Assembly (NCBI GenBank): GCA_036393515.1
Contig: DASWGV010000153.1
Span: 5,283 to 69,282 of the forward strand
Length of the DNA stretch: 64,000 bases
Origin: Gemmatimonadales bacterium
GTDB taxonomy: Bacteria; Gemmatimonadota; Gemmatimonadetes; Gemmatimonadales; GWC2-71-9
Direction of reading: 5' to 3'
Notes under the pieces: generated by a model
Seen by the model: only the letters and a program-made list of their open reading frames with translations
Told to the model about the DNA's origin: nothing
The model's database searches: none
Shown: piece by piece, positions 12,242 to 28,375 of the stretch
Numbering within the stretch: the first letter of the stretch is position 1
Layout of the letters: each line of letters opens with the position of its first letter
Made by a program: the position numbers and the translations under genes

Positions 12242-12278
12242 CGTTCACCGCCCCGGGGGCACGGTCCGCACGCTGCAC

Positions 12279-13262: not shown

Positions 13263-13264
13263 CG

Positions 13265-13293: not shown

Positions 13294-13368
13294 GGTTGAC
13301 ATCCCTCCGGCGCCCCTGGGCTTCGCGTCGCTTGGGGCGCCTCACCGTGGCTAATCCGGCGCGCAACC

Positions 13369-16053
13369 GTGGCTGACGGACCCCTGGCGGTGCTGTCTGA
13401 GCGTGACCTGACTGCTCTGCGGTCGTTCGCGCGCCGGATCGACCCGGCGGACGCCGGGGCGCATAACAACCTCGGTGTTCTGTTTTTCCGCAAAGGTCTG
13501 CTGGAGGACGCCGTCGCGGCGTTCGAGCAAGCGCTTGCTTTGGATCCGCGGCTGGACGTGGCGCGGCGCAATCTGGACCTGGCGCAGCGGCAGAATGGGC
13601 GGCTGGACCGCCGGGTGGCGGATCTGCGCGAACGCCTCCGGGTTGCCCCCGACGAGGTCGAAACCCGGCGTGAGCTCGCGCGAGCTTATCTGGCGCTGGA
13701 CCAATACGACGCGACCATCGCGGAGTTGGAAGCCGTCCTGGCCCGAGCACCGGGCGACGCGGGAGCACCGGTTCAACTGGGCCTGGCCGAGAAAGGGCGC
13801 GGCAACCTGGCCGCGGCCACGGACTGGTTCCTGCGGGCGCGTGAGCGCGATCCCTCGAGCAGCGTGGTGCACGCCTGCCTGGGCGGCGTGTTGCACCAGC
13901 GAGGTCTGCTGCACGACGCGCTTGCGGCCCTCCAGCGCGCCGTGGAGCTCAACCCGGATCATGCGGATGCCCATCGGACGCTGGCCTTCGTCTTGGGCGA
14001 CCTGGGGCGCCATGAAGAGGCGCGGGGGGCGACACGGCGCGCCCTCCAGTTGAATCCCGCGTTCGCCCGAGAGGACTCGACCTTGTCGCTGGAGGGCGGC
14101 CCGGCGCTCCGGCGGCGTACGTCGCGCGTGAGCGGAATTCAGATTGCGCCAGGGGCCGCGCTGGCCCATTACAGCCTAGGCCTGACGTTCCGCCAACGGG
14201 GGCATCACGCCGAGGCCCTCAAAGAGTACCGACTCGCTCTGGATGAAGGCGAAGATCGGCACCTTGTGCTGCCGGCGATGGCGGAGGTGCACCTGTTGCG
14301 GCGCGACTTCGCGGCCGCGTTGGAGCTGTATGAACGGCTCGTGGCCGAGACCGTCGATTCCCCCAAACTCTGGAACGAGCGCGGCGTGGTACTGCACCAG
14401 TTGGGGCGGCTGGAGGATGCGGTGGTCTCCTACCGTCGCGCCACGGAAATCGCCCCGGCGTACGCGCTGGCGCGCAACAACCTCGCGGTGGCGCTCTCGG
14501 TGGGTGGTCAGTACGAGGAGGCCGTGGACCAGCTGCGCCGCGTCTTGGAGGACCAGCCGCGGTGGGTAACCGCGGCGGTGAATCTGGGGTTGCTCTTGTC
14601 CCGGGCCGGGCGCCCCCAGCTTGCCCTGCAGGTCTACCGCCAGGCGTCCGAGGCGGAGCCGCCGTCGGCCGCCGCGTGGAACGGCGTCGGATTGGTGTTG
14701 AATGAACTGGGGCGGACGCAGGACGCGCGCAACGCGTTTGCCCGCGCGGTTGAAGCCGATCCCGATTCCGCCGAGGCGCATTACAATCTGAGCTTCGCCC
14801 TCTCGACGCTGGGCGATTTCGACTCGGCGCTGCGGGAGGTGACGCGGGCGCAGCAACTGGACCCCTACTACGTGCCGCAGAAGTTCCAGCTCGCCATCGA
14901 CCTGCAGTTCGAGAACACCACCATCGCCGTCGCTCCGCAGATTTCGGGGGACGTGACGGCGGACTTGGCCCCCGGGCAGCTCACGCTGGACACCAGCGCC
15001 CTGGACGGCCTGTTCCGCGAGTTGGAGCGGCCCCGGGCACGGGCCAGCGGCGTCCGCCGGGAGGATACCTATGCGCTGGCGCGGGACTATCTCGCCAAGG
15101 GGATGCTTGAGCTGGCCAGCGCGGAAACGGCCCGGGCGGCGGCGGCGGGAGCGGATCCCGTGCCCGGGCACCTCTTGGCCGCGGAGATCTTCGTGCGGCG
15201 CGGCTTGCCGGGCGAGGCGCTGGAGCGGTTCCGCGCGGCGCTCGCCGCGGCGCCGACGCAGCGGGATGCCCGGCTCGGCGAAGTGCGGGCGCTCGCCGCG
15301 CTGGGGCGCGCGGCCGAAGGGCTGGAGAACGCGGAGGCCCTGGTCGGCGAGCAGCCGGAGGACGTGGATGCCATGCTGCTCCTGGGGACCTGCCGGTGGG
15401 CCGCTGGCAACCCGGCCGGGGCCCTCGATGCCCTCCGGCGGGCCCGCCAGCGCGCGCCCACGCGCGCCGACGTGCTGAAGCTGGAAGGCGAGATCGCGCT
15501 CGGCACCGGGAACCTCACCACGGCGCAGGAGGCGTTTGAGAACGCGCTGTCGCTGGATCCACGGTTTCTCCAGGTGCACGTGGCGCTGGGCCTGGTGCAC
15601 GAGGCGCGGGAGGATTGGCCGGCCGCGGAACGGTGCTATCGCAACGCCCTGGATGTCCACCCTTCCTACGCGCAGGCCGCCATTGCGCTGGCGGACCTCT
15701 TCCGGCGCACCGGGGCGCCCCGAGCCGCCGTCAACCTGCTGGTGGACGTGTTGACCGCCAATCCTGCCGACGTGGGGGCCCTCTTGGCGCTGGGCCGGTC
15801 CCTGCTGGACGACAATCGCACCGAGGCCGCGCTGGAATCCCTGCGACGGCTGGTCGCGTTCGATGACCGGAACGCCGCGGGCCATTTCTTCCTGGGAATG
15901 GGGCTGGCGCGGCTGCGACAGTACCGCGAAGCGGTCCGGGCGTGGGAACGCGTGGTGAGCATTGACCCCTCCGGGCACCTGGCCCACCAGGCCCGCCGAC
16001 ACGCTCGCACCGCGCTGGACCTGCAGCATATCTTCCGGGCCGACGCGGCATAG
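13369..16053 (+). CDS. large tetratricopeptide-repeat protein (894 aa)
   Basis: ORF 13369..16053 with a GTG start. Repeated 34-aa TPR pattern throughout, e.g. AHNNLGVLFFRKGLLEDAVAAFEQALALDPR and AEAHYNLSFALSTLGDFDSALREVTRAQQLDP. Confidence 0.8.
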   Translation: MADGPLAVLSERDLTALRSFARRIDPADAGAHNNLGVLFFRKGLLEDAVAAFEQALALDPRLDVARRNLDLAQRQNGRLDRRVADLRERLRVAPDEVETRRELARAYLALDQYDATIAELEAVLARAPGDAGAPVQLGLAEKGRGNLAAATDWFLRARERDPSSSVVHACLGGVLHQRGLLHDALAALQRAVELNPDHADAHRTLAFVLGDLGRHEEARGATRRALQLNPAFAREDSTLSLEGGPALRRRTSRVSGIQIAPGAALAHYSLGLTFRQRGHHAEALKEYRLALDEGEDRHLVLPAMAEVHLLRRDFAAALELYERLVAETVDSPKLWNERGVVLHQLGRLEDAVVSYRRATEIAPAYALARNNLAVALSVGGQYEEAVDQLRRVLEDQPRWVTAAVNLGLLLSRAGRPQLALQVYRQASEAEPPSAAAWNGVGLVLNELGRTQDARNAFARAVEADPDSAEAHYNLSFALSTLGDFDSALREVTRAQQLDPYYVPQKFQLAIDLQFENTTIAVAPQISGDVTADLAPGQLTLDTSALDGLFRELERPRARASGVRREDTYALARDYLAKGMLELASAETARAAAAGADPVPGHLLAAEIFVRRGLPGEALERFRAALAAAPTQRDARLGEVRALAALGRAAEGLENAEALVGEQPEDVDAMLLLGTCRWAAGNPAGALDALRRARQRAPTRADVLKLEGEIALGTGNLTTAQEAFENALSLDPRFLQVHVALGLVHEAREDWPAAERCYRNALDVHPSYAQAAIALADLFRRTGAPRAAVNLLVDVLTANPADVGALLALGRSLLDDNRTEAALESLRRLVAFDDRNAAGHFFLGMGLARLRQYREAVRAWERVVSIDPSGHLAHQARRHARTALDLQHIFRADAA

Positions 16054-16057
16054 CGCC

Positions 16058-17212
16058 ATGGCGATCGAGGGCCCGCTCAAGGAACTCGGCATTCACGACG
16101 TCTTTCAGCTCCTCGACGTGAGTCGGAAGACCGGCGTGCTACGCATCGCGTCCCGGCTGCGCCAGAATCAGGGAACGGTCTACTTCGAGCAGGGCGCGGT
16201 CATCTACGCGGAGATCCAGAGCAATCCCCACCGGCTCGGCGAGCTGCTGGTCCGCGCGGGCACCATCACGCCCGCCGACCTGAGCCGCGCCGTGGATGTG
16301 CAACGCCAGGGAGATGGCCGGCGCATGGGCGAGATCCTGGTGGACATCGGCGCGGTCAGCGCGGCTGACCTGGAGCATCACGTCGGGGCCCAGGTGGAGG
16401 AGGTCGTCTTCGAGCTGATGAGCTGGCAGGAGGGGTACTTCTCGTTTCAGGAGGGTCTGCCGCCGGACATCGTCACCACCGGCGTGGTCCGCATCCCCAC
16501 CGAGGCGTTGCTCATGGAGGCCGCGCGCCGGATTGACGAGTGGTCTCGTATCGAGGCCCGGATTCCCCACCTCGGACTGGTGCCGCGCTTCGCCGCGCCG
16601 GACGAAGCCGGGCACGGACAACTGGAGCTGCTGGCGGAGGAGTGGGAGGTTCTGGCGGCGATTGACGGGCAGGCGTCGGTGCGGGATATCGCGTCGGTCT
16701 TGGAGCGACCTGAGTTCGACGTGGCCAAGACGGTCTTTGGACTGGCCAGCGCCGGCGTCATCGCCCTGGAGGACGAGCTGGCGCACACCTTGGCGGCTTC
16801 CGGGGCTTCGGCGGATCTGCAGGAGCTCCTGGAGCGGGCGGAGCAGGCGTTGGCCACCCGGGACTTCGCGGCGGCGCGCGCGGCCGCCGAGGCGGCGGTG
16901 GCGTCCGATCCCCACGAAGCGGCGGCGCATCTCATGCTGGGCCGGGCGTGCGTGGCGCAGCGGCGCGACAGCGAGGCGGAGGAGCACCTGCGGCGCGCGC
17001 TCCGGTTCGATCCGCTCCTCGCCGACGCGCAGCGGTTGCTGGGGGACGCGCTGGCCCGGCAGGGGCGCTTCGGCGAGGCTGTGGAATGGTGGCAGCGATG
17101 GCTCGGGCTCGGTGCCGCCGTGCCCGAGCTGGCCGCCGAGGTGGACCACGTGCAGGAGGCGGTGCACGCGGCTCAGACGCTGGACCTGCTCCTCAAAGTC
17201 CCCCATGGCTGA
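16058..17212 (+). CDS. PATAN/DUF4388-domain protein with C-terminal TPR region
   Basis: In-frame part of ORF 15962..17212. ATG 16058 lies 4 nt after the preceding stop. N-terminus GPLKELGIHDVFQLLDVSRKTGVLRI...TVYFEQGAVIYAE...WQEGYFSF, with a helical insert of two LGE-LLV-G-I-DL type repeats. TPR-like C-terminus. Confidence 0.75.
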   Translation: MAIEGPLKELGIHDVFQLLDVSRKTGVLRIASRLRQNQGTVYFEQGAVIYAEIQSNPHRLGELLVRAGTITPADLSRAVDVQRQGDGRRMGEILVDIGAVSAADLEHHVGAQVEEVVFELMSWQEGYFSFQEGLPPDIVTTGVVRIPTEALLMEAARRIDEWSRIEARIPHLGLVPRFAAPDEAGHGQLELLAEEWEVLAAIDGQASVRDIASVLERPEFDVAKTVFGLASAGVIALEDELAHTLAASGASADLQELLERAEQALATRDFAAARAAAEAAVASDPHEAAAHLMLGRACVAQRRDSEAEEHLRRALRFDPLLADAQRLLGDALARQGRFGEAVEWWQRWLGLGAAVPELAAEVDHVQEAVHAAQTLDLLLKVPHG

Positions 17213-18077
17213 GACCCTGCAGGCGCTCCAGGCGGAACTCCAGCGGGATGCGGCCAGTCTGGCATTCCTGCAGTTGGCGGAGGGGCTCCGCTTGCGCGGC
17301 GACTTGGACGGCGCGGCCCGGGTGGCCCTGGCCGGCCTCGAGCATCACCCCAATCTGGCGGATGCCCACGACGTCTTCGGCCGCATTCTCACGGACGCCG
17401 GGGACTTCGAGCGCGCCGCCGACGAGTGGAGCGTCGCTCTGGCGGTGGACCCGCGGCATGGTGGGGCGCACAAGGGTCTGGGGTTCCTGGGGTATCGGCG
17501 CGGCGACCTCGACGGCGCGCTGGATCACCTGGAGCTGGCGTTGGCTGCGGATCCCACGGATCGCAGCGTGGTCCAGGCCCTGCACGTGGTGCGGTCGGCC
17601 GCACAAGCGGCGGCCGCGGAGCCGCCGCCCGCCGAGCCGGAGACGCGAGTGCCCGGGGCCGCGGCCGGTCCCGCGCCGGCGGGCCCTCCTGCCGTCGAGC
17701 CGCGGGACCAGTTGCCGGGAACCGTGTTCGCCGGGTTCGAGGGCGGCGAACGGGGAATGCTGCTGCTCGACCCGCGCGGGCGAACGCTGGCCGGCGGTCT
17801 GCGGGATGGGAACGGCAGGGACGTGGCCGACGAGGTGGCCGCCTACCTCGCCGGCGTGTCCCAGGAGGCCGAGCGGACGGCCCGGCTTCTGGAGCTCGGT
17901 TCCTGGCGTTGGATCGCGGCGGAAGCGGAGGGTGGGACGCTCCATCTGTCCCGCCCCGCGGACGACGCCTTGTTGCTCCTGGCGCGGGACCGCAGTGTGC
18001 CCGCCGGCCGCATCGGGATCCTGGCGGCGCGGGCGGCAGACGTGGCGCGGCGCTGGTTGGAGGCGCAGCGGATATGA
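17205..18077 (+). CDS. TPR N-terminus fused to a Roadblock/LC7-like C-terminal domain
   Basis: In-frame part of ORF 16533..18077. ATG 17205 overlaps the upstream stop by 8 nt. TPR repeats (ADAHDVFGRILTDAGDFERAADEWSVALAVDPRH), an Ala/Pro linker, then ERGMLLLDPRGRTLAGG...ADEVAAYLAGV...GGTLHLSRPADDALLLLARD, which follows the Roadblock pattern by eye. Confidence 0.65.
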   Translation: MAETLQALQAELQRDAASLAFLQLAEGLRLRGDLDGAARVALAGLEHHPNLADAHDVFGRILTDAGDFERAADEWSVALAVDPRHGGAHKGLGFLGYRRGDLDGALDHLELALAADPTDRSVVQALHVVRSAAQAAAAEPPPAEPETRVPGAAAGPAPAGPPAVEPRDQLPGTVFAGFEGGERGMLLLDPRGRTLAGGLRDGNGRDVADEVAAYLAGVSQEAERTARLLELGSWRWIAAEAEGGTLHLSRPADDALLLLARDRSVPAGRIGILAARAADVARRWLEAQRI

Positions 18078-18424
18078 AGCCGGGATTCCGCTATGTGCTG
18101 GATGCCATCACGCGGATCCGCGGCGTGAACGGCGCCATCCTCGTGGCCGGGGAGGACGGTCTCATTGTGGCGGAGTCGCTCATGGAAGGCGTGCGCGGCA
18201 ACGCGGTCGCCGCGCTGGCCGCCAGTCTGTATCAGCGGTTCCGTCGCGCCACGGAATTCGCGGGTGTTCGGCGGCCGGAATTCCTGCACCTCCAGGCGGC
18301 GGAGGGTTCGCTGCTGGTTGTTCCCGCGCCGAACGATGTTCTGGTCGTGGCGGTCGCCGCGGGCGATATCAATGTGGGGCTGGCGCGGTTGGAGATGATT
18401 CGGGCGTCTGAGGCGATTGCGTGA
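18074..18424 (+). CDS. Roadblock/LC7 domain protein (116 aa)
   Basis: In-frame part of ORF 17426..18424. ATG 18074 overlaps the upstream stop (ATGA). VNGAILVAGEDGLIVAES...AVAALAASLYQ...GSLLVVPAPNDVLVVAVAAGDINVGLARLEM matches the Roadblock/MglB fold pattern. Confidence 0.7.
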   Translation: MKPGFRYVLDAITRIRGVNGAILVAGEDGLIVAESLMEGVRGNAVAALAASLYQRFRRATEFAGVRRPEFLHLQAAEGSLLVVPAPNDVLVVAVAAGDINVGLARLEMIRASEAIA

Positions 18425-18894
18425 CGACCACCCGAGCGGTCGATCCCTGGACGCTAGAGCCGCTCCGCCGGTTTGTGGCCGAGGCGGGCGCCCGGCTGGC
18501 GTTGCTGACCACGCCGGCCGGGCAGGTGATCGCGCAGCACGGTTTCACGCGGGCCGTGGATGTCATGGCGGCGGCCGCGTTGGGCGCGGCCATCGCGGCG
18601 TCCACGGCCGAGATCAATCGGATGCTCGCCGAGCCCACCTTCCGGGCGTTGGCCCACCAGGGAGTGCGCCACGGCATCTATCTCGCGAGCTTCGCCACGC
18701 CACGCGGACCCATGCTGGCCCTCGTGGTCTATGGGTTGGATTCGTCGATCGGGTTGGTGCAGTTGTTCTTCGAAGACCTCGTGCGGGACCTTGCGGCGGC
18801 CGCCCCCCTTCCGGAGGAGCGGCCCAAGACGGTGCTGGCCGCGGACTTCGAACGGGATCTCAACCAGAGCCTCGCCGCGCTCTTCGGACGGTAA
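18421..18894 (+). CDS. mglB: MglB-like Roadblock/LC7 protein (putative GAP partner of MglA)
   Basis: ORF 18421..18894. The GTG start overlaps the upstream stop by 4 nt. ARLALLTTPAGQVIAQHG...AAAALGAAIAAST...IYLASFATPRGPMLALVVYGLDSSIGLVQLFFEDL resembles the MglB core. It sits directly upstream of mglA, as in the mglBA operon. Confidence 0.65.
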   Translation: MTTTRAVDPWTLEPLRRFVAEAGARLALLTTPAGQVIAQHGFTRAVDVMAAAALGAAIAASTAEINRMLAEPTFRALAHQGVRHGIYLASFATPRGPMLALVVYGLDSSIGLVQLFFEDLVRDLAAAAPLPEERPKTVLAADFERDLNQSLAALFGR

Positions 18895-18897
18895 CGG

Positions 18898-19497
18898 ATG
18901 TCCCTGGTCAACTTTACCACCCGCGAGATCACGTGCAAGCTCGTCTACTACGGGCCGGGCCGATCCGGCAAGACCACGAATCTGCAGTACATCTACGGTC
19001 GCGTTCCTGAGGACCGGCGGGGGCGAATGGTCTCGCTGGCGACGCAGACCGACCGGACGCTGTTCTTCGATTTCCTGCCCATTGAGCTGGGCGCCATTTC
19101 CGGATTCAAGACCCGTTTTCAGCTCTACACCGTACCCGGCCAGGTGTACTACAACGCCACCCGTAAGCTCGTGCTCCAGGGTGCCGACGGGTTGGTGTTC
19201 GTCGCCGACAGCCAGGCGCGCCAGCTGGACGAGAACATCGAGAGCATGCAGAACCTGCACGCCAACCTGCTCGAGCAGGGCATGGATATTCGGACGCTGC
19301 CCGCCGTGGTGCAATACAACAAGCAGGATCTTCCGGCGGATCTCGTCCTCACGCCGGCGGAGTTGGACGACGCGATCAACTTCCGGAACTGGCCCAGTTT
19401 TCCCGCGGACGCCTTGAAGGGCCAGGGGGTGTTCGAGACCTTGCGCGCGCTCTCGGAGCGGGTGCTGCGGCGACTGTCCGAGGCGGAGCCGAGCTGA
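18898..19497 (+). CDS. mglA: MglA-type Ras-like small GTPase
   Basis: ORF 18898..19497, 199 aa. Collinear with my memory of Myxococcus MglA: KLVYYGPGRSGKTTNLQYIY (P-loop), TDRTLFFDFLP (intrinsic Arg), LYTVPGQ (Thr in place of Asp in DxxGQ), QYNKQDL (NKxD). Confidence 0.9.
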   Translation: MSLVNFTTREITCKLVYYGPGRSGKTTNLQYIYGRVPEDRRGRMVSLATQTDRTLFFDFLPIELGAISGFKTRFQLYTVPGQVYYNATRKLVLQGADGLVFVADSQARQLDENIESMQNLHANLLEQGMDIRTLPAVVQYNKQDLPADLVLTPAELDDAINFRNWPSFPADALKGQGVFETLRALSERVLRRLSEAEPS

Positions 19498-19500
19498 CGC

Positions 19501-21456
19501 GTGGATCTGAATCGGCAATGCCGCTTCGATACGTTCGTGGTCGGGCCGAGCAACCAGATGGCGGCCCAGGCGGCGCGCACCGTGGCGCAAAGTCCGGGCA
19601 CGGCGTATAACCCGCTGTTTCTCTACGGTCCGACGGGTCTGGGCAAGACCCACCTCTTGATGGCCATCGGGCATCACGCCCGCGAGGTCGCCGGCTCCAT
19701 CGCCGTTGAGTACCTGACGCTCGAGGAGCTCGTGGAAGCGCTCCACGCCGCGGTCGCCGCCGGGCAAAGTGACGCGTTCCGCCGGCGCTTCGCGGCGGTG
19801 GACGTGCTGCTGGTGGACGACGTGCAGTTCCTCACCCATCGGCGCGAGGTCCAGGCCGAGTTGCTACGGCTGGTGGGTGAGCTCCAGGGGGCGGGGAAAC
19901 AGATCGTCCTGAGCAGCGATCGCCCCCCGGCGGAGATCGAGAACCTGGATGAACGGTTGATCCACGGGTTCCAGGGGGGCCTGATCGTGGATATCGGGCG
20001 TCCGGAGATCGCCACGCGGCTGGCGATTCTGGAGCGGCGCGCCCGGGACCGGGGCGTCCAGTTCGCGGCGGGTGTGCTAGAAGCCGCGGCGGGTCCCGAC
20101 GTGGCCAATGTGCGCGAGCTGCTCGGCCTCCTCAATCGCCTGGTGGCATTCCAGGCCGTGAGTGACGAGCCGCTGAAAGCCGAGTCGGTGGCGGCGCTGC
20201 TGGGCGTGTCCGCCGTGGCGCCCGCGGCAGCCGTGGCGTCAACGCCCGCCCCAGGGGCGGCCGCCGCCGCCCCGCCGGATGAGTTTTCGTCCTTCTTGTC
20301 CGACATCACCAGCACGGTGACGCAGCAGGTTGAGGCGTGGCGCCGCCGTCTTGGTGAAACCATCCTGCGATGGGAGGGGGAGGGATATCGCACGACGCGC
20401 CTGGAGGAATTCCTCAAACGCGACACGCCCGTCGGGGCCGAAGCGGCTATCCGGAAGTTCGAGGCGGACGTCGAGCGCCTCCGTGTTCTTGAGGCCGAGA
20501 TTATTCGACTCGATCCCCGGGCGGTCGGGGACGCCGTGTTCCGCAATCCGGACCGGCTCGGTGACGCGGAGTCGCTGGTGCAGCGCGCGCGCGACGGGCT
20601 CGCGCCGTTGCCGGGACCGTCACCGGTCTGGACCTTCGATGAGTATCTCCCCGGCGAAGTCAACAAGGTGGCGCTGCGGGCGGCACGCGCCGTTGCAGAG
20701 TCGCCAGGCACGCGGTTCAACCCGCTGGTGCTGGTGGGCCCAGCCGGCGTGGGGAAGACGCATCTCCTCCATGCGATCGGCAACGCGCTCGCCGCCTCTG
20801 GCGCGGTGATCGCCTGCTTGTCGGCCAGCGACTTCGCCGATGACTTGCTGGAAGCGCACGCCGCGGACCGCACCGAGGCCTGGCGCACCCGCCAGCGCCG
20901 CGCTGTGGCGTTGCTGCTGGACGACGTGCACCTCGTCGCCCGGCGCCCAGAGGTCGAGGAGGAGCTGTATCACTTGCTCAATCACATCCAGGCGCAGAAG
21001 GGACAGTTGGTGTTCACCATCAACGCGCTTCCCGGAGAAGTGGCGGGACTGGACCCACGGGTAGTGGCGCGTCTGGACGAGGGATTGCCGGTCACCGTGG
21101 CGCCCCCCGACCGTGAGCTCAGGCTGGCCATTGTGCGCCGGCAGATCGAGATCCGGGTCGGGACACCGGACCTGGATCTGGTGGAATACCTCGGCGCGCG
21201 CCCCGCCGAGTCCGTCCGCGTGGTCCTTGCCCTGGTGCAGCGGGTGCTGAGCGCCGCCGAGAGCCAGGGCGCAGTCCCCAGCGCGTCCCTGGCGCGCGAA
21301 CTGCTGGAGGGGTCCATGCCCCGCCAGCGACGGCCCTCGGTGGGGATGCGTACCAGCGGCATCATCGTCTCTCCGACGGCCTCGGTGCGGAGCCGGGAGA
21401 AGTTCGTCTGGTTCTGGCCCGACGCCGCGGACCGCATTGTGGAGGAGTTGGACTGA
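19501..21456 (+). CDS. tandem DnaA-like AAA+ ATPase (two DnaA domain-III modules, no DnaA DNA-binding domain)
   Basis: ORF 19501..21456, 651 aa, GTG start 3 nt after the mglA stop. Module 1: FDTFVVGPSN, NPLFLYGPTGLGKTHLL, LLVDDVQF, IVLSSDR, NVRELLG. Ala/Pro-rich and helical linker. Module 2: FDEYLPGEVN, NPLVLVGPAGVGKTHLL, LLLDDVHL, PRVVARLDEGL. I see no helix-turn-helix domain IV at the C-terminus. Confidence 0.85.
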   Translation: MDLNRQCRFDTFVVGPSNQMAAQAARTVAQSPGTAYNPLFLYGPTGLGKTHLLMAIGHHAREVAGSIAVEYLTLEELVEALHAAVAAGQSDAFRRRFAAVDVLLVDDVQFLTHRREVQAELLRLVGELQGAGKQIVLSSDRPPAEIENLDERLIHGFQGGLIVDIGRPEIATRLAILERRARDRGVQFAAGVLEAAAGPDVANVRELLGLLNRLVAFQAVSDEPLKAESVAALLGVSAVAPAAAVASTPAPGAAAAAPPDEFSSFLSDITSTVTQQVEAWRRRLGETILRWEGEGYRTTRLEEFLKRDTPVGAEAAIRKFEADVERLRVLEAEIIRLDPRAVGDAVFRNPDRLGDAESLVQRARDGLAPLPGPSPVWTFDEYLPGEVNKVALRAARAVAESPGTRFNPLVLVGPAGVGKTHLLHAIGNALAASGAVIACLSASDFADDLLEAHAADRTEAWRTRQRRAVALLLDDVHLVARRPEVEEELYHLLNHIQAQKGQLVFTINALPGEVAGLDPRVVARLDEGLPVTVAPPDRELRLAIVRRQIEIRVGTPDLDLVEYLGARPAESVRVVLALVQRVLSAAESQGAVPSASLARELLEGSMPRQRRPSVGMRTSGIIVSPTASVRSREKFVWFWPDAADRIVEELD

Positions 21457-23069
21457 TGGCGATCCGGGGAAGCTTGAAGGAGGCGTCGCTCGCCGACGTG
21501 CTCCAGCTCCTGGCCCTGGGCCAGAAAACCGGCTGCCTCTCCGTGATCGATCGCAACAACATCGCCCACCTGTACTTCGAACGCGGCCGGATCTGCTACG
21601 CCTCCATTGTGAACCGCCGGGACCGCCTGGGTGATATCCTGGTGAAGAACGGACGTATCTCGCAGAACCAGCTGGAGCGAGCCATCGCCCGGCAGGAGCA
21701 GGAGCGGGAGAAACGGCTGGGAGAGCTGCTGATTGACGAAGGCGCTATCTCGCGCAGTGACCTGGAGCATTACATGCGCGTGCAGATTCAGGAGGCGGTG
21801 TATTTCCTGTTCACCTGGACCCGGGGCACGTTCAATTTCGAGACGGACCTGCGGCCCGAGGGCCAGGACGTCCTGGTCTCGATCAATCCCGAGTCATTGC
21901 TGCTGGAAGGCGCCCGCCGGGTTGACGAGTGGAGCCTGATCGAGAAGAAGATCCCCAGTTTCGATCTGGTGTTCAGCGTGGACGCGGACCGTCTGGCCGG
22001 TTCGGACGTGGAGCTCACCGAAACGCAGCGACGCATTGTGCCCCTCATCGACGGCCAGCGGGACGTCCAGCACGTGATCGAGGAATCCGGACTCGGCGAG
22101 TTCGAGGTGGGCAAGGCATTGTTCGGGCTGATCACGGCCGGATTCGCCCACCGCATCGGACGCAGCCACGCGGTGGCGGCCGACGGGACCGATGCCCGGG
22201 TGGAGGAGCATCGCAACCTGGGTCTGGCGTTCTACCGGACCGGGATGTTGGACGAAGCCAGCCGGGAATTCCGGCGGGTGGCCGAGCTCCGACCCACGGA
22301 CGGCAGCGCCTACTTCTACCTGGGGTTGGTGGCGCTGAAACAGGCGCGCTGGGAGGAGGCCGCGGAGCTGCTATCCCAGGCCGCGGAACGCGGCGGTGAG
22401 CGGCCCGCCGTGCTGCATAATCTGGCGTATGCGCTCGAGCGCACCGGACGCCTGGATGAAGCGGAGGCCATGTTCGGTGATGCCGCCGCGCGGGCTCGGC
22501 ACGACGCGCGGCACCTGCTGGGGTGGGGCATCGCCGCGCTCCAGCGGGGGGACCCGCAAGTCGCGGCCGGCCGCCTGGACCGCGCCCGCGAAGTCTGGGG
22601 CAACGAGTTGCCGGCCATCTGGTATTGGGCGCGCGGCCTGGCCGCCGCGGCGGATGGGGAATTCCCCGAGGCGGAGCGCCTCACGGGTGAGGGCCTGGAG
22701 CGCTTCCCCCACCACGCCATCCTCCAGAACAACCTCGCCGCGCTGGTGGAGATCGGGGGCGATCTGGAGCGAGCCCAGGAGTTGATTGACGCGGCGCTGG
22801 CGGATGATCCATCGGTCCCGCAGCTGTCCAAGAACTTCGGAGACTTGCTCTACCGGTCGGGCCGGTATGATGATGCGTGGGAGGCCTACAAGCGGGCCGT
22901 AAAGCTGCAGCCGGACTTGGGAGACGACGTGTACTTCAAACTGGGTAACATCGCGTACAAGCGGATGGACCGGGACATGGCGGGAATGTTGTGGCGCCAG
23001 GCGCTGGAGCTGAACCCCGGACACGAGCTGGCCCGCACCAACCTGGAGACGCTGAATGCGGTGGCCTGA
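21456..23069 (+). CDS. PATAN/DUF4388-domain protein with long TPR C-terminus (paralog of 16058..17212)
   Basis: ORF 21456..23069. The ATG shares one nt with the upstream TGA. N-terminus GSLKEASLADVLQLLALGQKTGCLSV...HLYFERGRICYAS...LGDILVKNGRISQNQLERAI...LGELLIDEGAISRSDLEHY...WTRGTFNFE, followed by TPR repeats. Confidence 0.75.
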   Translation: MAIRGSLKEASLADVLQLLALGQKTGCLSVIDRNNIAHLYFERGRICYASIVNRRDRLGDILVKNGRISQNQLERAIARQEQEREKRLGELLIDEGAISRSDLEHYMRVQIQEAVYFLFTWTRGTFNFETDLRPEGQDVLVSINPESLLLEGARRVDEWSLIEKKIPSFDLVFSVDADRLAGSDVELTETQRRIVPLIDGQRDVQHVIEESGLGEFEVGKALFGLITAGFAHRIGRSHAVAADGTDARVEEHRNLGLAFYRTGMLDEASREFRRVAELRPTDGSAYFYLGLVALKQARWEEAAELLSQAAERGGERPAVLHNLAYALERTGRLDEAEAMFGDAAARARHDARHLLGWGIAALQRGDPQVAAGRLDRAREVWGNELPAIWYWARGLAAAADGEFPEAERLTGEGLERFPHHAILQNNLAALVEIGGDLERAQELIDAALADDPSVPQLSKNFGDLLYRSGRYDDAWEAYKRAVKLQPDLGDDVYFKLGNIAYKRMDRDMAGMLWRQALELNPGHELARTNLETLNAVA

Positions 23070-23105
23070 GCGCGCGACGCGCGGCGGGGGCCGGAGCCCG
23101 GGGGC

Positions 23106-23969
23106 ATGAGCGATTCCATCGCCGCGGCCTTGCGCGCCTCGTATGCCGAGATCACCAAGAAGCTGGACCTGCCGCACACGCCGGAGAGCCGGGAAGCCGT
23201 CAAGCGGGACATCATCGCGTTGTTCAAGACGGTGGACCAGGCCATCATGGATCTCGGAGCGTTGAAAGAAGACATTCGCACCCTGGTGGACCGGTACAAG
23301 CAGCTCTCGCAAGGCGAGACCGGGACGCAGGCGCCGCAGTTCACCGGAGCGGTCCCCGTCCTCCACGCCGATCACATTGGCGCTTCCACGTTCATTCAGA
23401 AGGGCTGGAGCCTGATCTCGCTGGGTGACTATCCGGGCGCCATCCAGGCCCTGTCCAAGGCCCTTACCCTCTCCCCGGGAGATTCCCAGGCGGAATCGCT
23501 CCTGGGGTGGGCCCAGATGTTGGCCGAGGATTATGACAGCGCGCTGGCCACCCTCCAGAAGGTGCTCACCAAGGAGCCGGCCAACTCGCTGGCCCGGATC
23601 AATCTGGGGTACGTGTGTCTCAAGAAGCGGCTGTTTGGTGAAGCCATTGAGCACCTTTCCAAGGCGATCCGTCTGGACAACGACAAGAAAGCGACGCTGT
23701 ACGCCCATTACTACCTGGGCCTGGTGTACTTCGAGCGTGAGATGTTCGAGGATGCCGAGACGTTCTTCCGCAAGACCCTGCAATTGGGCCCGAACCTGAT
23801 CGAAGCGTACTACGAGCTGGGTCGCTCCTTCTGGTTCGCCGGAGATCCGGAGGCGGCCAAGCAGGCGTGGGAGGACGGCTTCAAGGCCAACAAATTCAAT
23901 CCGTGGGGCAAACGCTGCAAGGAAACGCTCGATCTCGTCGCCCAGGGCCACGAGCCGCCCCGCTCCTGA
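23106..23969 (+). CDS. TPR-repeat protein (287 aa) with helical N-terminal region
   Basis: ORF 23106..23969 with TPR units such as GDYPGAIQALSKALTLSPGD, EDYDSALATLQKVLTKEPAN and ATLYAHYYLGLVYFEREMFEDAETFFRKTLQLGPN. Confidence 0.75.
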   Translation: MSDSIAAALRASYAEITKKLDLPHTPESREAVKRDIIALFKTVDQAIMDLGALKEDIRTLVDRYKQLSQGETGTQAPQFTGAVPVLHADHIGASTFIQKGWSLISLGDYPGAIQALSKALTLSPGDSQAESLLGWAQMLAEDYDSALATLQKVLTKEPANSLARINLGYVCLKKRLFGEAIEHLSKAIRLDNDKKATLYAHYYLGLVYFEREMFEDAETFFRKTLQLGPNLIEAYYELGRSFWFAGDPEAAKQAWEDGFKANKFNPWGKRCKETLDLVAQGHEPPRS

Positions 23970-24823
23970 CGCTGGTCCTGGTTGGCTCCGTGCCCCAGGG
24001 GCCAGCGGTGGTGCAGGTGGGCGGCGCCGCGGCCGTGTACTGGCGGGGCCACGAGGGGCTCGCGACCGCGCTGGCCGAGGCCGCCGACCGCGCGGGGCCG
24101 TGGCCCGGGCTTCCCGACTCGATCCGTCCCGCCGTCCGCATCCTGATCGCCGGGTCCCAGACTCAGTTCGATTCGCTGGTGGCGGGACGCCTGCCGTCGT
24201 GGGGAGCCGGGGCCGCCTTTCCGGGTATGAGAACGGTAGTGGTGCTGGCGGGGCGGGATCCCTTTCGAGTCCTCCAGCATGAGTTGGCGCACGTCGCGCT
24301 GCACGCCGTGGTGCGTGGCCCGCCGCTCTGGCTAGACGAGGGGTACGCGGCCCGGGCCGCCGGCGAGTGGGATCGCCTCGCGGCGCTGCGAGTGAACTGG
24401 ATCGTGGCCCTCGGTCGGGTACCGCCGCTGCGGGGCCTGGCCGTCGAGCTGCGGGGTGGGGCGGCGCAGGCGGAGGTGGGCTACGCATTGGCCACCAGCG
24501 CCGTGCTCTTGCTGGAACGGATGGGTGGGGAACGCGGCTTGGCCCCGTTGCTGGCGGCGTTGGCGGCCACGGGCGATCTGGATCAGGCGCTCCGACAAAC
24601 TCACGGCGTGAGCCTTGATCAGTTCGAGCGGCGGTGGCGGGAAGATCTGCGCCGGCGCTTTGGATGGCTTGCGCTGGCGGGCTCGTTCACGGCCTTGTGG
24701 ACGGCAGTCCTGGCGGTGGTCGGGAGCGTATGGTTGCGCCGCCGGCGGCGTGACGCCGTCAGGCGGGCGGCGCTCGAGATTGGGTGGCCCGTTCCCGCGG
24801 ATGAACCCGGGGCAAGTGCTTGA
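23867..24823 (+). CDS. peptidase MA-like (HExxH ... EGxA) protein with C-terminal TM anchor; start uncertain
   Basis: ORF 23867..24823 with HELAHVALHAVVRGPPLWLDEGYA (gluzincin-type) and a C-terminal helix WLALAGSFTALWTAVLAVVGSVWL. ATG 23867 overlaps the upstream gene by 103 nt. In-frame GTG 23903 or GTG 23990 are alternative starts. RSRRPGPRAAPLLTLVLVGSV looks signal-peptide-like, which favours a start at 23867 or 23903. Confidence 0.6.
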   Translation: MGGRLQGQQIQSVGQTLQGNARSRRPGPRAAPLLTLVLVGSVPQGPAVVQVGGAAAVYWRGHEGLATALAEAADRAGPWPGLPDSIRPAVRILIAGSQTQFDSLVAGRLPSWGAGAAFPGMRTVVVLAGRDPFRVLQHELAHVALHAVVRGPPLWLDEGYAARAAGEWDRLAALRVNWIVALGRVPPLRGLAVELRGGAAQAEVGYALATSAVLLLERMGGERGLAPLLAALAATGDLDQALRQTHGVSLDQFERRWREDLRRRFGWLALAGSFTALWTAVLAVVGSVWLRRRRRDAVRRAALEIGWPVPADEPGASA

Positions 24824-24848
24824 CGGACATGGACCTGGCAGTTAGCCT
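24820..24848 (+). promoter_or_regulatory. sigma70-like promoter candidate TTGACG-N17-TAGCCT
   Basis: TTGACG at 24820-25, an exact 17-nt spacer, then TAGCCT at 24843-48. ATG 24857 lies 8 nt after the -10 and has no Shine-Dalgarno. It could equally drive tRNA-Val. Confidence 0.25.
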
Positions 24849-24856
24849 GAAACCTT

Positions 24857-25042
24857 ATGCCGGAAAAAGAGATGTTGTCCGGGCGCTTGCGATTTGGACG
24901 AGTCAATGCTGGGTTGCTAGGCGCGGCGGTCATCTCGCTTGGTGTGGGGTATTACCTGTTGGCTCAAGGGTCAACCGGGCTTGCCCCCATACTCCTGGTG
25001 CTCGGGTACTGCGTGCTGTTTCCGCTGGGGTTGGCACTGTAG
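24857..25042 (+). CDS. small hydrophobic protein, two predicted TM helices (61 aa), hypothetical
   Basis: ORF 24857..25042: AGLLGAAVISLGVGYYLLA and LAPILLVLGYCVLFPLGLAL. Codon third positions are visibly less GC-biased than in neighbouring genes, so coding status is uncertain. Confidence 0.4.
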   Translation: MPEKEMLSGRLRFGRVNAGLLGAAVISLGVGYYLLAQGSTGLAPILLVLGYCVLFPLGLAL

Positions 25043-25048
25043 CGTTCC

Positions 25049-25123
25049 GGGCGAATAGCTCAGTTGGCCTAGAGCGCCTGCCTTACACGCAGGAAGTCGG
25101 GGGTTCGAATCCCTCTTCGCCCA
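25049..25123 (+). tRNA. tRNA-Val (anticodon TAC)
   Basis: Hand-folded 75-nt cloverleaf. Acceptor GGGCGAA/TTCGCCC, D stem GCTC/GAGC, anticodon stem CCTGC/GCAGG with loop CTTACAC, T arm GGGGG-TTCGAAT-CCCTC, discriminator A. CCA is not encoded. Confidence 0.95.
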
Positions 25124-25194
25124 TGCGGTGGCCGGATCGCGAAGGGGGCGGCTCCGGTGCAGGACGTGACGGTCACAAACTGGAGGGACGGACG

Positions 25195-26964
25195 GTGCAG
25201 CAGATTTGCCGCAAGCTGATCGCGCTCGGGTGGATTGTCGGGTTCGCCGGGACGTTCATCATCCCTGCCTCCGCGGGGGCGCAGACGCGGCCGCAAGCCC
25301 AGCAGCTGGACCGCCTCCTGGTGCTCACTCCGGTGCCGGTGGACCCCGGGGATTCCATCCTGGCGGTGGCGGTCGGCGACGAGTTCCGGTCCCGCCTTGA
25401 AGGCAAGACCAGGCGCCAGATGAGCGTGGTACCCAAGGACCGGATCGGCGAGGCGCTGGAGGCGTCCGGCTTCAGCCGTGAGGCCATGCTGGATCCTTCG
25501 GCCTCCGAACAGCTCGCCCGTTTCCTCCAGGCAGACGCCTACATCGTCGGCCGGCTGGAACAGAACTCGGCACCGCAAGCACACCTGCGCATGGTGGATA
25601 TCCGGCGCACCGGTCTCTCGGGATGGGTCCACTTCACCGCGCCGACGGGTGCTACGCCGAAGGATATCGCCGAGGGCCTGGCGAGCCAGATGGACGCGCA
25701 GTTGCGGGCCGCGAGCGCCGCGCGCGACTGCGTGGATCGGCGGGACCGCCGGGACTACAGCTCCGCCAAGGATCGCGCCCGCCGCGCGTTCGAAGCCGTG
25801 CCCAATCATCCGTCCGCCGCCATGTGCCTGGCTATCGTCTTTGAGGCGGCGCGGGAGCCGGTGGACAGCCAGATCATGGCGCTCGAGATGGCCCTGAAAG
25901 GCGACTCGATCCATACCCGCACCTACGAAATGCTGGGGCGCCAGTACCAGGTAAAGGGCGACACGCTGAAGGCCGCCGAGATCTACCAGCAGCAGCTGGC
26001 GGCGGATCCTACGGACAGCCGGCTCCGCACGGGTGTGGTGGCCCTGCTGATCACCCAGAAGCAATACGAGCAGGCGCGGGCCCTGGTGGACGAGGGTCTC
26101 AAGGCCAATCCGACGGATGTGCAGGCTCTCCAACTGAAGGTGCGTGCCTGCAAGGACGGGTCGCTCTGGCCCTGTCTGTTGGAGGCCAACGCGGCGCTCT
26201 ATGAGCTGGACTCGAGCCTGACGGGCAATGCCCAGTTCTATCTGGAGACCTTTGGGGCGGCCCAGGCGGCCAACGACACCGCCGCCATGCTCCGCTGGTC
26301 CGGCGAGGCGGTGCGCCGGGTTCCCGATAACGTCATTTTCTGGCGCGCGCGGGCCAACGCGCTGAAGACCGCCGGCCAGGACGACTCGGCGCTGGTGGCA
26401 TACGAGCGGATCGCGGCGCTCGATCCCAGCGATATCGCCAGTCCGTTGCAGATCGCCGAGATCATGATGGCCAGTGTGGTCATTGACACCACGGTACCGC
26501 TGGACACGGCGCGGCTGGCGCAGGTAGACGCGCTTCTGTCGCGCATCGCCGCCTTGCGAACCACCCCCGCGGGTGGGTCCAGCGACACCGCCGTGTGGAC
26601 CAACGTGGCGGCGCGTTACCTCCAGCCGGGTGCGCAGCTGGTGCAGAAGCGGGTGAGTTTCCCGTTAGGGGTCTACTGGCTGGAGCGCGCCGTGAAATAC
26701 GACGTGAGCCGCCAGCTCTCTACCCAGGCGAACTTCTTCCTGGGCCTGGGGTATTTCTTCCAGTTGGGAGAGGTAGATGCCCGGTTGCGTGAGACCAAGT
26801 CCTGCGCCATGGTGACGCAAGAAGCGGATATGGTCGCCAAGGCCAAGGCGGCGATGACCGCCGGTGCGAGTCTGCAGCAGGCCACCGCCAATCAGATCCT
26901 CCAATACTTGGGGCAGTATGAGGGCCTGATCCCCAGCTACAAGCAGAGCTTCAAATGTCCCTGA
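25195..26964 (+). CDS. secreted TPR-repeat protein
   Basis: In-frame 3' part of ORF 24820..26964; the upstream part runs through tRNA-Val. GTG 25195 is preceded by GGAGGG. Signal peptide ICRKLIALGWIVGFAGTFIIPASAGAQ. TPR-like repeats such as YEMLGRQYQVKGDTLKAAEIYQQQLAADP. Confidence 0.75.
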   Translation: MQQICRKLIALGWIVGFAGTFIIPASAGAQTRPQAQQLDRLLVLTPVPVDPGDSILAVAVGDEFRSRLEGKTRRQMSVVPKDRIGEALEASGFSREAMLDPSASEQLARFLQADAYIVGRLEQNSAPQAHLRMVDIRRTGLSGWVHFTAPTGATPKDIAEGLASQMDAQLRAASAARDCVDRRDRRDYSSAKDRARRAFEAVPNHPSAAMCLAIVFEAAREPVDSQIMALEMALKGDSIHTRTYEMLGRQYQVKGDTLKAAEIYQQQLAADPTDSRLRTGVVALLITQKQYEQARALVDEGLKANPTDVQALQLKVRACKDGSLWPCLLEANAALYELDSSLTGNAQFYLETFGAAQAANDTAAMLRWSGEAVRRVPDNVIFWRARANALKTAGQDDSALVAYERIAALDPSDIASPLQIAEIMMASVVIDTTVPLDTARLAQVDALLSRIAALRTTPAGGSSDTAVWTNVAARYLQPGAQLVQKRVSFPLGVYWLERAVKYDVSRQLSTQANFFLGLGYFFQLGEVDARLRETKSCAMVTQEADMVAKAKAAMTAGASLQQATANQILQYLGQYEGLIPSYKQSFKCP

Positions 26965-27125: not shown

Positions 27126-27161
27126 GGCTCCACGGCGTGCTCCGTGGGGCCGTTTCTCATT
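27126..27161 (+). terminator. Rho-independent terminator candidate after tRNA-Asp
   Basis: 10-bp stem, GGCTCCACGG (27126-35) with CCGTGGGGCC (27142-51), containing one G:U pair. 6-nt loop, then GTTTCTCATT. Confidence 0.55.
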
Positions 27162-27174
27162 GCTCTCCACGCCG

Positions 27175-28089
27175 ATGACGGTGCAGTCGGGCTTCCACGC
27201 GCCCGTCCTGGCTGAGGCGGTCGGGGAACTCGCGGTGGGAAGCCGGCGGGCGGTAGACGGCACCGCCGGTGGCGGGGGGCACACGGAAATGCTGCGGGAT
27301 GCCGGAGCGCTGGTGCTGGCGGTGGATCGCGATCCCGAGGCGGTGGCCGCGACGCGCGCCCGGCTGGGTGCGGCCGCGTCGGTGCGTCAGGGTACGTTCG
27401 CGGATCCGGCCATGCTCGCTGAGATCCGGGCGTTTCAACCGGACCTGGTCCTGCTGGACCTGGGCGTGTCGTCACGGCAGCTCGATACCGATGCCCGGGG
27501 GTTCTCCTTCCGCCGGGGCGTACCGCTCGATATGCGAATGGACCCCACGGGCAGCCCTACCGCGGCGGGACTCTTGAACCGGTTGCCGGAGAGCGACCTG
27601 GCGCGCGTGTTCCGGGAGTTCGCCGACGAGCCTCGCGCCCGGCGACTGGCACGGGCGATTGTGGCGCGGCGCGCCCGCCACGCCTTCACGGTGAGCGACG
27701 ACCTGGTGGCCGCCATCCGAGGCGCTCTGGGTCCCCGCACCGGCCCGGCCGATTTCGCCCGATTGTTCCAGGCGTTGCGCATGGAGGTGAACCAGGAGCC
27801 CACGCAGCTCGAACGGGCCCTGCCGGCCCTGCGGGACGCGCTGGTCCCGGCGGGGCGCCTCCTGGTGATCGCGTACCATTCCGGCGAAGACCGGCTGGTC
27901 AAGCACGCCTTTCGGGAATGGGCGCGGACCTGTATTTGCCCACCGCGACAGCCGGTGTGCATCTGCCGCGGCCGCCCTCTCGGGACCGTTGATCCCCATC
28001 GTCCCGTCCGTCCGGCTCCGGCCGAGACGGCGGCCAACCCGCGCGCGCGCAGCGCCACCTTGCGCGGCTTTCGGATGGCCGATGCCTAA
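27175..28089 (+). CDS. rsmH: 16S rRNA (cytosine1402-N4)-methyltransferase RsmH
   Basis: ORF 27160..28089. TTG 27160 lies inside the upstream terminator T-tract, so I prefer ATG 27175 (MTVQSGFHAPVL). Motifs HAPVL, DGTAGGGGH, DLGVSSRQLD and FHSGEDR-like YHSGEDR. Confidence 0.9.
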   Translation: MTVQSGFHAPVLAEAVGELAVGSRRAVDGTAGGGGHTEMLRDAGALVLAVDRDPEAVAATRARLGAAASVRQGTFADPAMLAEIRAFQPDLVLLDLGVSSRQLDTDARGFSFRRGVPLDMRMDPTGSPTAAGLLNRLPESDLARVFREFADEPRARRLARAIVARRARHAFTVSDDLVAAIRGALGPRTGPADFARLFQALRMEVNQEPTQLERALPALRDALVPAGRLLVIAYHSGEDRLVKHAFREWARTCICPPRQPVCICRGRPLGTVDPHRPVRPAPAETAANPRARSATLRGFRMADA

Positions 28090-28369: not shown

Positions 28370-28375
28370 GAACGC

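Follow-up and report, generated by a model that had tools for sequence, protein, structure and literature searches.

A tandem DnaA-type ATPase without domain IV accompanies PATAN, TPR and MglA genes in Gemmatimonadota

In a 64,000-nucleotide stretch from a Gemmatimonadales bacterium (contig DASWGV010000153.1 of assembly GCA_036393515.1; "the window" hereafter means this whole stretch), the gene directly downstream of mglA encodes two DnaA domain-III modules in a single chain, and I refer to this tandem DnaA-domain-III ATPase (19501..21456, + strand) as tDnaA. It represents a large and discrete family, apparently undescribed and so far restricted to the Gemmatimonadota as far as its members are named, whose architecture, residue states, conservation and synteny are established here. 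The constant companions of tDnaA are a PATAN and/or a large tetratricopeptide repeat (TPR) protein, and I would give an even chance to the view that tDnaA is an ATP-driven switch or assembly scaffold in a Gemmatimonadota-specific PATAN-TPR/large-TPR signalling module, to which MglA, Roadblock and usually Che proteins are added in the Gemmatimonadales.

The Pfam profile Bac_DnaA (PF00308) matches tDnaA twice, at residues 3-164 (E 5.6e-54) and at about 377-531 (E 1.4e-35). An initial annotation, made from the letters of the window, had described two copies of DnaA domain III without domains I and IV, and the profile searches bear this out. With the linker and the C-terminal 79 residues scanned alone, neither Bac_DnaA_C (PF08299) nor DnaA_N gave a Pfam match at E<=10, and the whole C-terminal half gave none to PF08299, which represents domain IV, at the same threshold; domain I (PF11638) is absent, as the protein begins 2 residues ahead of domain III. 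PF08299 occurs in none of the tandem homologues and is present in the genuine DnaAs retrieved by the same search. Pfam (E<=10), a PDB sequence profile and Foldseek against the PDB gave no sign of a DNA-binding domain hidden in the linker, the middle domain or the tail. The positions given earlier for both Walker A motifs, for a glycine codon at 19966-19968 and for an arginine codon at 21070-21072 are all correct, and the C module does start at about residue 377; the N module, which had been ended at residue 215, extends with its lid to about residue 235. In the AlphaFold model of tDnaA the domains are confident (mean predicted local distance difference test, pLDDT, 82), and Foldseek places the N module on domain III of Bacillus subtilis DnaA (8bv3) with a TMt of 0.94 and a root mean square deviation (rmsd) of 1.6 A. 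Across diverse alignments, the Walker A Lys/Thr, the Walker B Asp-Asp and the sensor-2 Arg of the N module are essentially invariant.

The two modules differ in box VII. HMMER aligns 'LDERLIHGFQGGL' of tDnaA without gaps to 'LEDRLRSRFEWGL' of B. subtilis DnaA (8bv3/8btg) and to 'FQDRLVSRFQMGL' of Thermotoga maritima DnaA (2z4r), so that the box VII alignment of the initial annotation was correct and Gly156 matches the second arginine of box VII, at position 264 of the 8btg chain, which I take to be the arginine finger of DnaA. In the C module, Arg524 occupies the equivalent column. For a census of these positions, both modules of 306 two-module proteins were aligned to one module profile and the key columns were read, with a pocket scored as intact when it had K, S/T, D and D/E, and a finger when it had R. 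The N pocket is intact in 301 of the 306 proteins (98%) and the C finger (Arg524 column) in 287 (94%), against 210 for the N finger and 244 for the C pocket. N pocket and C finger are kept jointly in 283 of 306 (92%), C pocket and N finger in 152 (50%). All four elements are intact in 144 proteins, the N finger alone is lost in 83, among which the protein of the window falls, the C pocket alone is lost in 54, and both are lost in 2.

The simplest reading of this census is that the family has one essential composite ATP site, formed by the N pocket and the C finger, and that the other interface is dispensable, because the first pair is nearly always kept and the second is lost in various ways by clade. 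The second site appears to have been disabled independently, by the replacement of Arg with Gly at position 156 here and by loss of Walker A, Walker B and lid from the C module in Longimicrobiales-type proteins; these show, for example, 'SKDGHGARG' in place of Walker A and 'LLLHG' in place of Walker B, and keep 'DRLxSRFExGLVV'. The complementary degeneration of the two active sites that had been proposed initially is thus true for this protein, but it is the state of a sub-clade and not a trait of the family: in 72 close relatives the N-finger column has R in 43 and G in 25 (the Arg524 column is R in 72 of 72), and in representatives of GTDB species R in 69 and G in 5. Likewise, of the proposed pseudo-dimer with one composite site, the single site gains support from the census, but the finger-less N module turns out to be a minority state. 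No clear correlation was seen between the Gly-finger state and loss of the Che genes, as genomes with a Gly finger occur both with and without Che genes.

A folded helical domain lies between the modules (residues ~259-375), a feature missing from the initial annotation. It carries the motifs DEFxxFLS, W-E-x-x-G-[YF]-R-T (with Tyr in tDnaA of the window) and VFRDPDR, and it gave no match in Pfam, PDB-sequence or Foldseek-PDB searches. The linker is variable across the family, disordered and rich in Ala/Pro or in charged residues; the tail is also disordered and highly variable in length, up to ~600 aa. A tail motif, which the initial annotation also lacked, has the consensus [ST]-x-E-K-x-V-W-x-W-P-x(3)-[DE]-R-[LIM]-x-E-E and is found in all clades, scored by pattern in 279 of 306 members, with most of the other 27 deviating at the Pro position only. 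In one family member of 738 aa from an ENA metagenome (P0228), a receiver domain (aa 613-728, Response_reg 44.9 bits) is found instead of the tail motif. The middle helical domain and the tail motif set the tDnaA family apart from a plain duplication of DnaA, and the protein of the window has all four elements of the family, namely an intact N pocket, the middle domain, the C-module finger and the tail motif.

From 5.8 billion proteins, over 120 full-length relatives of 640-662 aa with 55-99% identity were retrieved, and an exhaustive HMMER scan of 1.84 billion cluster representatives extended the full-length relatives down to ~33% identity. With the family profile, the tandem proteins score at least 596 bits, and the next matches are genuine DnaAs with domains I and IV, at no more than 176 bits. 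The relatives that bear a taxon name all belong to the Gemmatimonadota (Gemmatimonadales, Longimicrobiales or unclassified), except one metagenome-assembled genome (MAG) labelled Myxococcales, in which the synteny of the tDnaA locus is identical. When one genome of each GTDB species was scanned by pattern, the family-specific middle domain turned up in 195 genomes. In the databases, the relatives are named 'DnaA/Hda family protein', 'ATP-binding protein' or, wrongly, 'chromosomal replication initiator protein DnaA'. The last name can be traced to the DnaA equivalog TIGR00362, for which the summed score of tDnaA is 422.8 against a cut-off of 343.9, with the best stretch covering model positions 103-335 of 437; the cut-off is exceeded because two partial matches add up. 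Open-access papers and bioRxiv yielded no paper tying a DnaA-like ATPase to MglA, PATAN or Che systems, in line with the earlier impression that such a DnaA tandem, linked to a polarity GTPase, had not been described.

To compare gene contexts, the proteins of the window neighbourhood were searched with tblastn against 83 related loci. In all 76 Gemmatimonadales loci with at least 900 nt of upstream sequence, mglA is located directly upstream of tDnaA, and in 75 of 75 loci with enough downstream sequence a PATAN-TPR gene follows directly (on either side, three loci seem to deviate only because their alignments are split). The Gemmatimonadales order mglB-mglA-tDnaA-PATAN/TPR usually lies inside a Che operon: among 44 loci with long flanks, 41 have cheY-cheA-cheC upstream of the block and cheR-cheD-cheB-cheW downstream of it. 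The complete Che operon around the block, present in most Gemmatimonadales, reads cheW, cheY, cheA, cheC ... cheR, cheD, cheB, cheW (L002 1-17700; L008-L083), and no gene for a methyl-accepting chemotaxis protein (MCP) was seen within the Che cluster. The gene order is unchanged in a divergent Gemmatimonadales clade (35-49% identity). Four further loci are without mglA: L085 (Longimicrobiales-type, on a 4.46-Mb contig) has rluD-tDnaA-PATAN/TPR-peptidase; L088 has rluD, a weak Roadblock gene, tDnaA and PATAN/TPR; L086 (basal, low-GC) has cheW-cheY-cheA-AAA-cheW-cheC-TPR(823)-PATAN(248)-tDnaA; and L090 (basal) has TPR(867)-tDnaA, with the large TPR gene only. The linkage to mglA stressed in the initial annotation is therefore tight in the window and in 76 of 76 Gemmatimonadales loci, but it is missing in the Longimicrobiales-type and basal loci. 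The constant PATAN/TPR partner instead favours an alternative offered in the same annotation, an ATP-driven assembly scaffold for the TPR/PATAN proteins.

Within the window (Table 1), the 651-aa frame begins with GTG 3 nt past the mglA stop, as initially stated: the mglA stop TGA (19495-19497) is followed by 'cgc' and the GTG at 19501, GGAG lies ~12 nt 5' of this start, and the last base of the tDnaA stop TGA (21454-21456) is also the first of the ATG that opens the following gene, which encodes PATAN-TPR. Starts and stops overlap or nearly abut throughout the block 13369-26964 (the start of the upstream PATAN-TPR gene, ATG 16058, was taken from the translation of its open reading frame, ORF). 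The gene upstream of tDnaA is a true, group-1 MglA, and the mglB-like protein scores 39.8 bits with the NCBIfam model MglB, against a cut-off of 200. Three Roadblock/LC7-type genes in a row (17205-18894) precede mglA, which recalls the multi-Roadblock regulators of the MglB/MglC/RomY type in Myxococcus. Both PATAN-TPR proteins of the window exceed the cut-off of 38 for NF053729, an MshE-related motif binding cyclic di-GMP (c-di-GMP), and the match, at aa ~57-109, falls in the PATAN domain's helical insert, which suggests that c-di-GMP could be an input to the module via the PATAN inserts. The block is located between divIVA, a purine nucleoside phosphorylase gene, ileS, lspA and rluD (6798-13262) and a complete dcw cluster (27160-42310) of mraW, ftsI, mur ligases, mraY, ftsW, ftsA and ftsZ, a position kept in Gemmatimonadales and Longimicrobiales-type genomes. 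In the window, rluD is followed directly by the gene for the 894-aa TPR protein (12279-13369), all of these Che genes having been lost in this lineage.

Table 1. Features of the tDnaA gene and of its neighbours in the window
Feature	Coordinates	Strand	Evidence or remarks
Large TPR protein, 894 aa	13369..16053	+	syntenic partner in nearly all loci
Upstream PATAN(DUF4388)-TPR, MshE-related c-di-GMP motif	16058..17212	+	DUF4388 E 1.2e-34; NF053729 49.9 bits
TPR-Roadblock fusion, 290 aa	17205..18077	+	TPR_2/TPR_16; weak Robl_LC7 21.7 bits, below cut-off 23
Second Roadblock/LC7 protein, 116 aa	18074..18424	+	Pfam E 5.1e-09; ATG overlaps preceding stop
mglB-like Roadblock/LC7, 157 aa	18421..18894	+	Robl_LC7 26.7 bits (cut-off 23)
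mglA, 199 aa	18898..19497	+	E 9.4e-74 to M. xanthus MglA (5ymx), full length; 3.4e-67 to T. thermophilus MglA
tDnaA, whole gene	19501..21456	+	651 aa, GTG start; >120 full-length homologues, 55-99% identity
N module, AAA+ core and lid (aa 1-235)	19501..20205	+	Pfam E 5.6e-54; aligned to 8bv3/2z4r
N-module Walker A GPTGLGKTH	19627-19653	+	motif
N-module Walker B LLVDD	19807-19821	+	motif
N-module box VII	19951-19983	+	Gly156 (GGG 19966-19968) at Arg-finger position
N-module sensor-2 Arg205	20113-20115	+	alignment column
Ala/Pro-rich disordered linker (aa 237-260)	20209..20280	+	pLDDT <50; length varies in alignment
Helical middle domain (aa ~259-375)	20275..20625	+	motifs DEFxxFLS, W-E-x-x-G-Y-R-T, VFRxPDR; conserved in family alignments; predicted helices 261-365
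C module (aa 376-604)	20626..21312	+	Pfam E 1.4e-35
C-module Walker A GPAGVGKTH	20737-20763	+	motif
C-module Walker B LLLDD	20911-20925	+	motif
C-module box VII	21055-21087	+	Arg524 (CGT 21070-21072)
C-module sensor-2 Arg573	21217-21219	+	alignment column
C-terminal short motif SREKFVWFWPDAADRIVEE, end of disordered tail (aa 605-651)	21391..21447	+	tail pLDDT <50
Downstream PATAN-TPR, 537 aa	21456..23069	+	DUF4388 E 8.4e-37; NF053729 54.4 bits
TPR protein, 287 aa	23106..23969	+	conserved downstream member
Peptidase_MA_2 (HExxH) protein	23970..24823 (start approximate)	+	Pfam 38.8 bits
TPR protein after Peptidase_MA_2	ends 26964		gene order of window

The Peptidase_MA_2 gene is found at the same position in L001, L002, L084, L085 and L088. 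Together with a ~61-aa ORF and a ~600-aa weakly TPR-like protein it trails the cluster in every lineage examined (L001 14499-17579; window 23970-26964), the ~61-aa ORF having been called in the related loci and not in the window. As these trailing genes are kept even in lineages without mglA, they may belong to the module. In L085, a gas-vesicle cluster (gvpA-like, gvpK, gvpL/F, gvpG and an ArsA-like ATPase gene; 16727-21974) is located just past the tDnaA-PATAN-peptidase block.

From architecture, conservation and context I infer ATP-dependent assembly, partner docking and a pilus or polarity output. As a switch or scaffold, tDnaA would be an AAA+ protein of the cytoplasm, derived from DnaA but no longer an initiator that binds DNA boxes, and its block in the Gemmatimonadales would be co-translated as one operon. 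ATP in the N pocket, which the C-module finger would help to sense or to hydrolyse, would control the conformational or oligomeric state of the protein. The PATAN-TPR/TPR partners probably dock to the middle domain and to the C-terminal EK-x-VW-x-WP...R-x-x-EE peptide, with the TPR grooves as the obvious candidate docking sites. In the Gemmatimonadales, GTP through MglA/MglB, c-di-GMP through the PATAN insert and the Che phosphorelay may feed into the same assembly, and the assembly could in turn determine where a polar apparatus is placed or how active it is. The best candidate for this apparatus is the type IV pilus, since PATAN binds PilB/PilC in cyanobacteria and since fusions of MshEN with DnaA domain III lie in a pilus cluster elsewhere. 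PATAN has been characterised as an output domain of Che-like pathways, and in Synechocystis its binding partners are the pilus motor proteins PilB1 and PilC (bioRxiv 10.1101/2021.06.11.447907). The linkage of MglA and PATAN genes was noted by Wuichet and Sogaard-Andersen (PMC4316618), in whose table Gemmatimonas aurantiaca GAU_1409 is listed as 'PATAN>MglA>-PATAN>', where the gene between MglA and the second PATAN is left unnamed; this gene occupies the place of tDnaA and presumably is tDnaA. The pilus cluster is that of the unrelated contig L089 (GCA_030620115.1, 2623-25923), where pilD, pilB, pilT, pilC and pilS/pilR lie beside four consecutive genes with MshEN domains, three of which are fused to one or two DnaA domain-III modules (398, 983 and 1990 aa) without domain IV and without the tail motif of tDnaA. 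A special kinship of these fusions with tDnaA was rejected, as their modules are 35-41% identical to tDnaA and 41% identical to genuine DnaA, and the parallel is one of context only.

A stronger version of the switch would make the DnaA-derived ATPase the core, overlooked nucleotide switch of a polarity system: it would assemble head to tail in an ATP-dependent manner through N pocket and C finger, maybe on single-stranded DNA (ssDNA) or the nucleoid, recruit PATAN-TPR and MglA-GTP, integrate ATP, GTP, c-di-GMP and Che phosphorylation, and set the cell pole. This version I regard as possible, if doubtful. Several observations weigh against the switch or scaffold as proposed here. The proteins of the census are those retrieved by the searches in this study and are phylogenetically non-independent, and the Longimicrobiales-type proteins keep their N finger despite a dead C pocket, which is at odds with a joint decay of both halves of the same site. 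The full-length AlphaFold model has a predicted template modelling (pTM) score of 0.46, so that the geometry between the domains is uncertain and the composite site could form in cis or in trans. Furthermore, no pilus genes are present within the window, the block being placed instead between divIVA-ileS-lspA-rluD and mraW...ftsZ. Finally, the residues at two positions of the C module resemble those of DnaA: the column of V211 has I/V in 237 of 306 proteins, and that of R245 has R in 239 of 306. In Escherichia coli DnaA, these residues bind single-stranded DNA, so that binding of nucleic acids by tDnaA is conceivable.

These columns would rather fit an anchor, in which the C module binds DNA via DnaA-type pore residues and either tethers the PATAN/TPR/MglA/Che complex to the nucleoid or senses ssDNA. 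The column of K243 in the C module has K/R in 193 of 306 proteins, and the N module carries H and E at the positions of V211 and R245. In the structural model, both modules have two helices between strands 2 and 3, which match the initiator-specific insertion, and the Che cluster is without an MCP gene; by analogy, the Frz arrays of Myxococcus are scaffolded on the nucleoid. However, tDnaA of the window has Leu450, Arg482 and Glu484 and hence no equivalent of R245, domain IV is absent, and the neighbourhood holds no DNA-metabolism genes. As the segment in question is a slow-evolving DnaA signature in general, its conservation may be structural, and I consider a DNA anchor unlikely. A regulator of replication similar to Hda, whose C finger would trigger hydrolysis in DnaA-ATP or cap DnaA filaments and so couple polarity to replication, seems very unlikely. 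The second-best curated matches of the C module are indeed HdaA/Hda (NF051883 E 1.5e-16; PDB 3bos/3sc3 E ~1e-10), and its finger is strongly conserved, also in those proteins whose C module is unable to bind ATP. However, all scores fall short of the respective cut-offs (TIGR03420 159.5 vs 194.8; NF051883 60.7 vs 300; NF005982 54.6 vs 268), and across the family 2-5 residues precede the AAA+ module, which leaves no room for an N-terminal beta-clamp-binding motif. The more than 80 loci have signalling, polarity and TPR neighbours, never dnaN, dnaA or other replication genes, and the fusions observed are to receiver and MshEN domains. The scores, the missing room for a clamp motif and the absence of replication genes nearby also speak against the link to the replication cycle that the initial annotation had considered. 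A helper ATPase of the IstB/DnaC type was rejected on its scores (NF038214 114 vs a cut-off of 200; DnaC 47.9 vs 357), and no transposase or helicase genes were found around tDnaA in the more than 80 loci. A component of anti-phage defence was rejected as well, since PADLOC gives short generic P-loop matches only (best DrmD, 42.5 bits, ~100 aa).

Alternatively, the module may position the division or envelope-growth machinery and not a motility apparatus. Genomes of the Gemmatimonadales and of the Longimicrobiales type have the locus directly between divIVA-PNP-ileS-lspA-rluD (PNP, purine nucleoside phosphorylase) and mraW-ftsI-...-ftsA-ftsZ. In a basal clade, two bactofilin genes lie ~5 kb upstream of the TPR-tDnaA pair (L090 3765-4667, in a MAG labelled 'Gemmatimonadetes bacterium'), and G. 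aurantiaca has been reported to bud. The adjacency to the dcw cluster may, however, be plain synteny at the level of the phylum, the basal loci L086 and L090 do not show it, and the Che, PATAN and MglA components indicate motility-type polarity in characterised systems, so a regulator of cell division or polar growth appears quite unlikely. It could also be argued that there is nothing to explain, if two dnaA/hda genes had been fused by an error of assembly or gene calling, or if tDnaA were a functionless, decaying paralogue. Annotation pipelines do call tDnaA "DnaA", and DNA of high G+C content yields numerous long false ORFs: between 13351 and 24488 of the window there are many long antisense or out-of-frame ORFs on both strands, of up to 705 aa (e.g. 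22371-24488, - strand), which overlap the real genes, result from the 69% G+C and are without the bias in G+C at third codon positions (GC3) of real frames. The tDnaA frame, in contrast, has the codon-position G+C pattern of real genes, with a GC3 of 0.85, and its K49, D106, K419 and D474, the catalytic residues, are invariant in an alignment of 26 diverse sequences. Hundreds of full-length orthologues are known from independent assemblies, including multi-megabase contigs, so the tandem is no assembly artefact, a possibility raised in the initial annotation. Conservation and codon bias rule out an artefact or spurious ORF, and a gene without function is scarcely credible.

If the switch or scaffold is real, an initiator-type AAA+ ATPase is added to the MglA/Roadblock/PATAN components of polarity. 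No initiator-type ATPase is known in the polarity systems of Myxococcus, Thermus, Bdellovibrio or the cyanobacteria. The tDnaA family also offers a natural series with one live and one dead site, in which one interface has been disabled in two ways, and this could inform how composite sites evolve. As a signature gene found throughout the phylum, it gives an entry into the Gemmatimonadota, abundant soil bacteria with an almost unknown cell biology, and the cultured G. aurantiaca appears to carry the locus, which makes the hypothesis testable. Mislabelling of tDnaA as 'DnaA' can meanwhile mislead the prediction of origins and the conventions for genome starts in this phylum. Should the polarity switch prove true, the DnaA fold would have had a second, non-replicative career, with a possible physical link between the state of the chromosome and polarity.

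With DnaA itself, tDnaA shares the Bac_DnaA AAA+ domain in both modules, with recognisable Walker A and B motifs, box VII and sensor 2, and the N module is 42% identical to domain III of B. subtilis DnaA over the Foldseek alignment. It differs in the lack of domains I, II and IV, in having two modules per chain, an extra helical domain and a C-terminal peptide, in its signalling rather than replication gene context and, in the protein of the window, in the Gly at the N finger. Hda/HdaA are similar in being domain-III paralogues without domain IV, with an arginine finger acting on another ATP site, but Hda consists of one module (~230 aa) and carries a beta-clamp-binding motif at its N-terminus, whereas tDnaA is a tandem and scores below the Hda cut-offs. 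The clamp-loader subunit delta-prime is an ATP-free AAA+ module that donates its arginine finger to the pocket of a neighbour, as also occurs in asymmetric assemblies of the ORC type, and this resembles the state of the C module in the Longimicrobiales-type proteins; those are, however, separate subunits of replication machines and not a single-chain tandem in a signalling operon. The type II proteins p97/Cdc48 and NSF, which form stacked hexameric unfoldases, also have two AAA+ modules per chain, one of them often less active, but they belong to another AAA+ clade. Their arrangement was rejected as a model for tDnaA, since it is not reproduced in the Foldseek comparison (~15% identity, rmsd >23 A).

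With respect to its partners, the module is most reminiscent of the MglA-MglB/Frz system of Myxococcus, with a true MglA, Roadblock/MglB, TPR and Che proteins, which the Gemmatimonadales have all in one operon. It differs in that no equivalent of RomR/RomX was identified here, and in that a DnaA-like ATPase and PATAN-TPR are integral parts; no such ATPase is reported for the polarity systems of Myxococcus, Thermus or Bdellovibrio in open-access papers and bioRxiv. The PatA-type regulators of cyanobacteria likewise use PATAN as the output of Che-like pathways, and the PATAN proteins of the window are the constant neighbours of tDnaA, but here PATAN is fused to TPR and not to a receiver domain, and it is paired with an AAA+ protein. 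On these comparisons tDnaA does not qualify as a DnaA, lacking domains I and IV, nor as an Hda or an IstB/DnaC protein. Within the initiator-clade AAA+ ATPases, it is best regarded as a variant that is new in both architecture and function.

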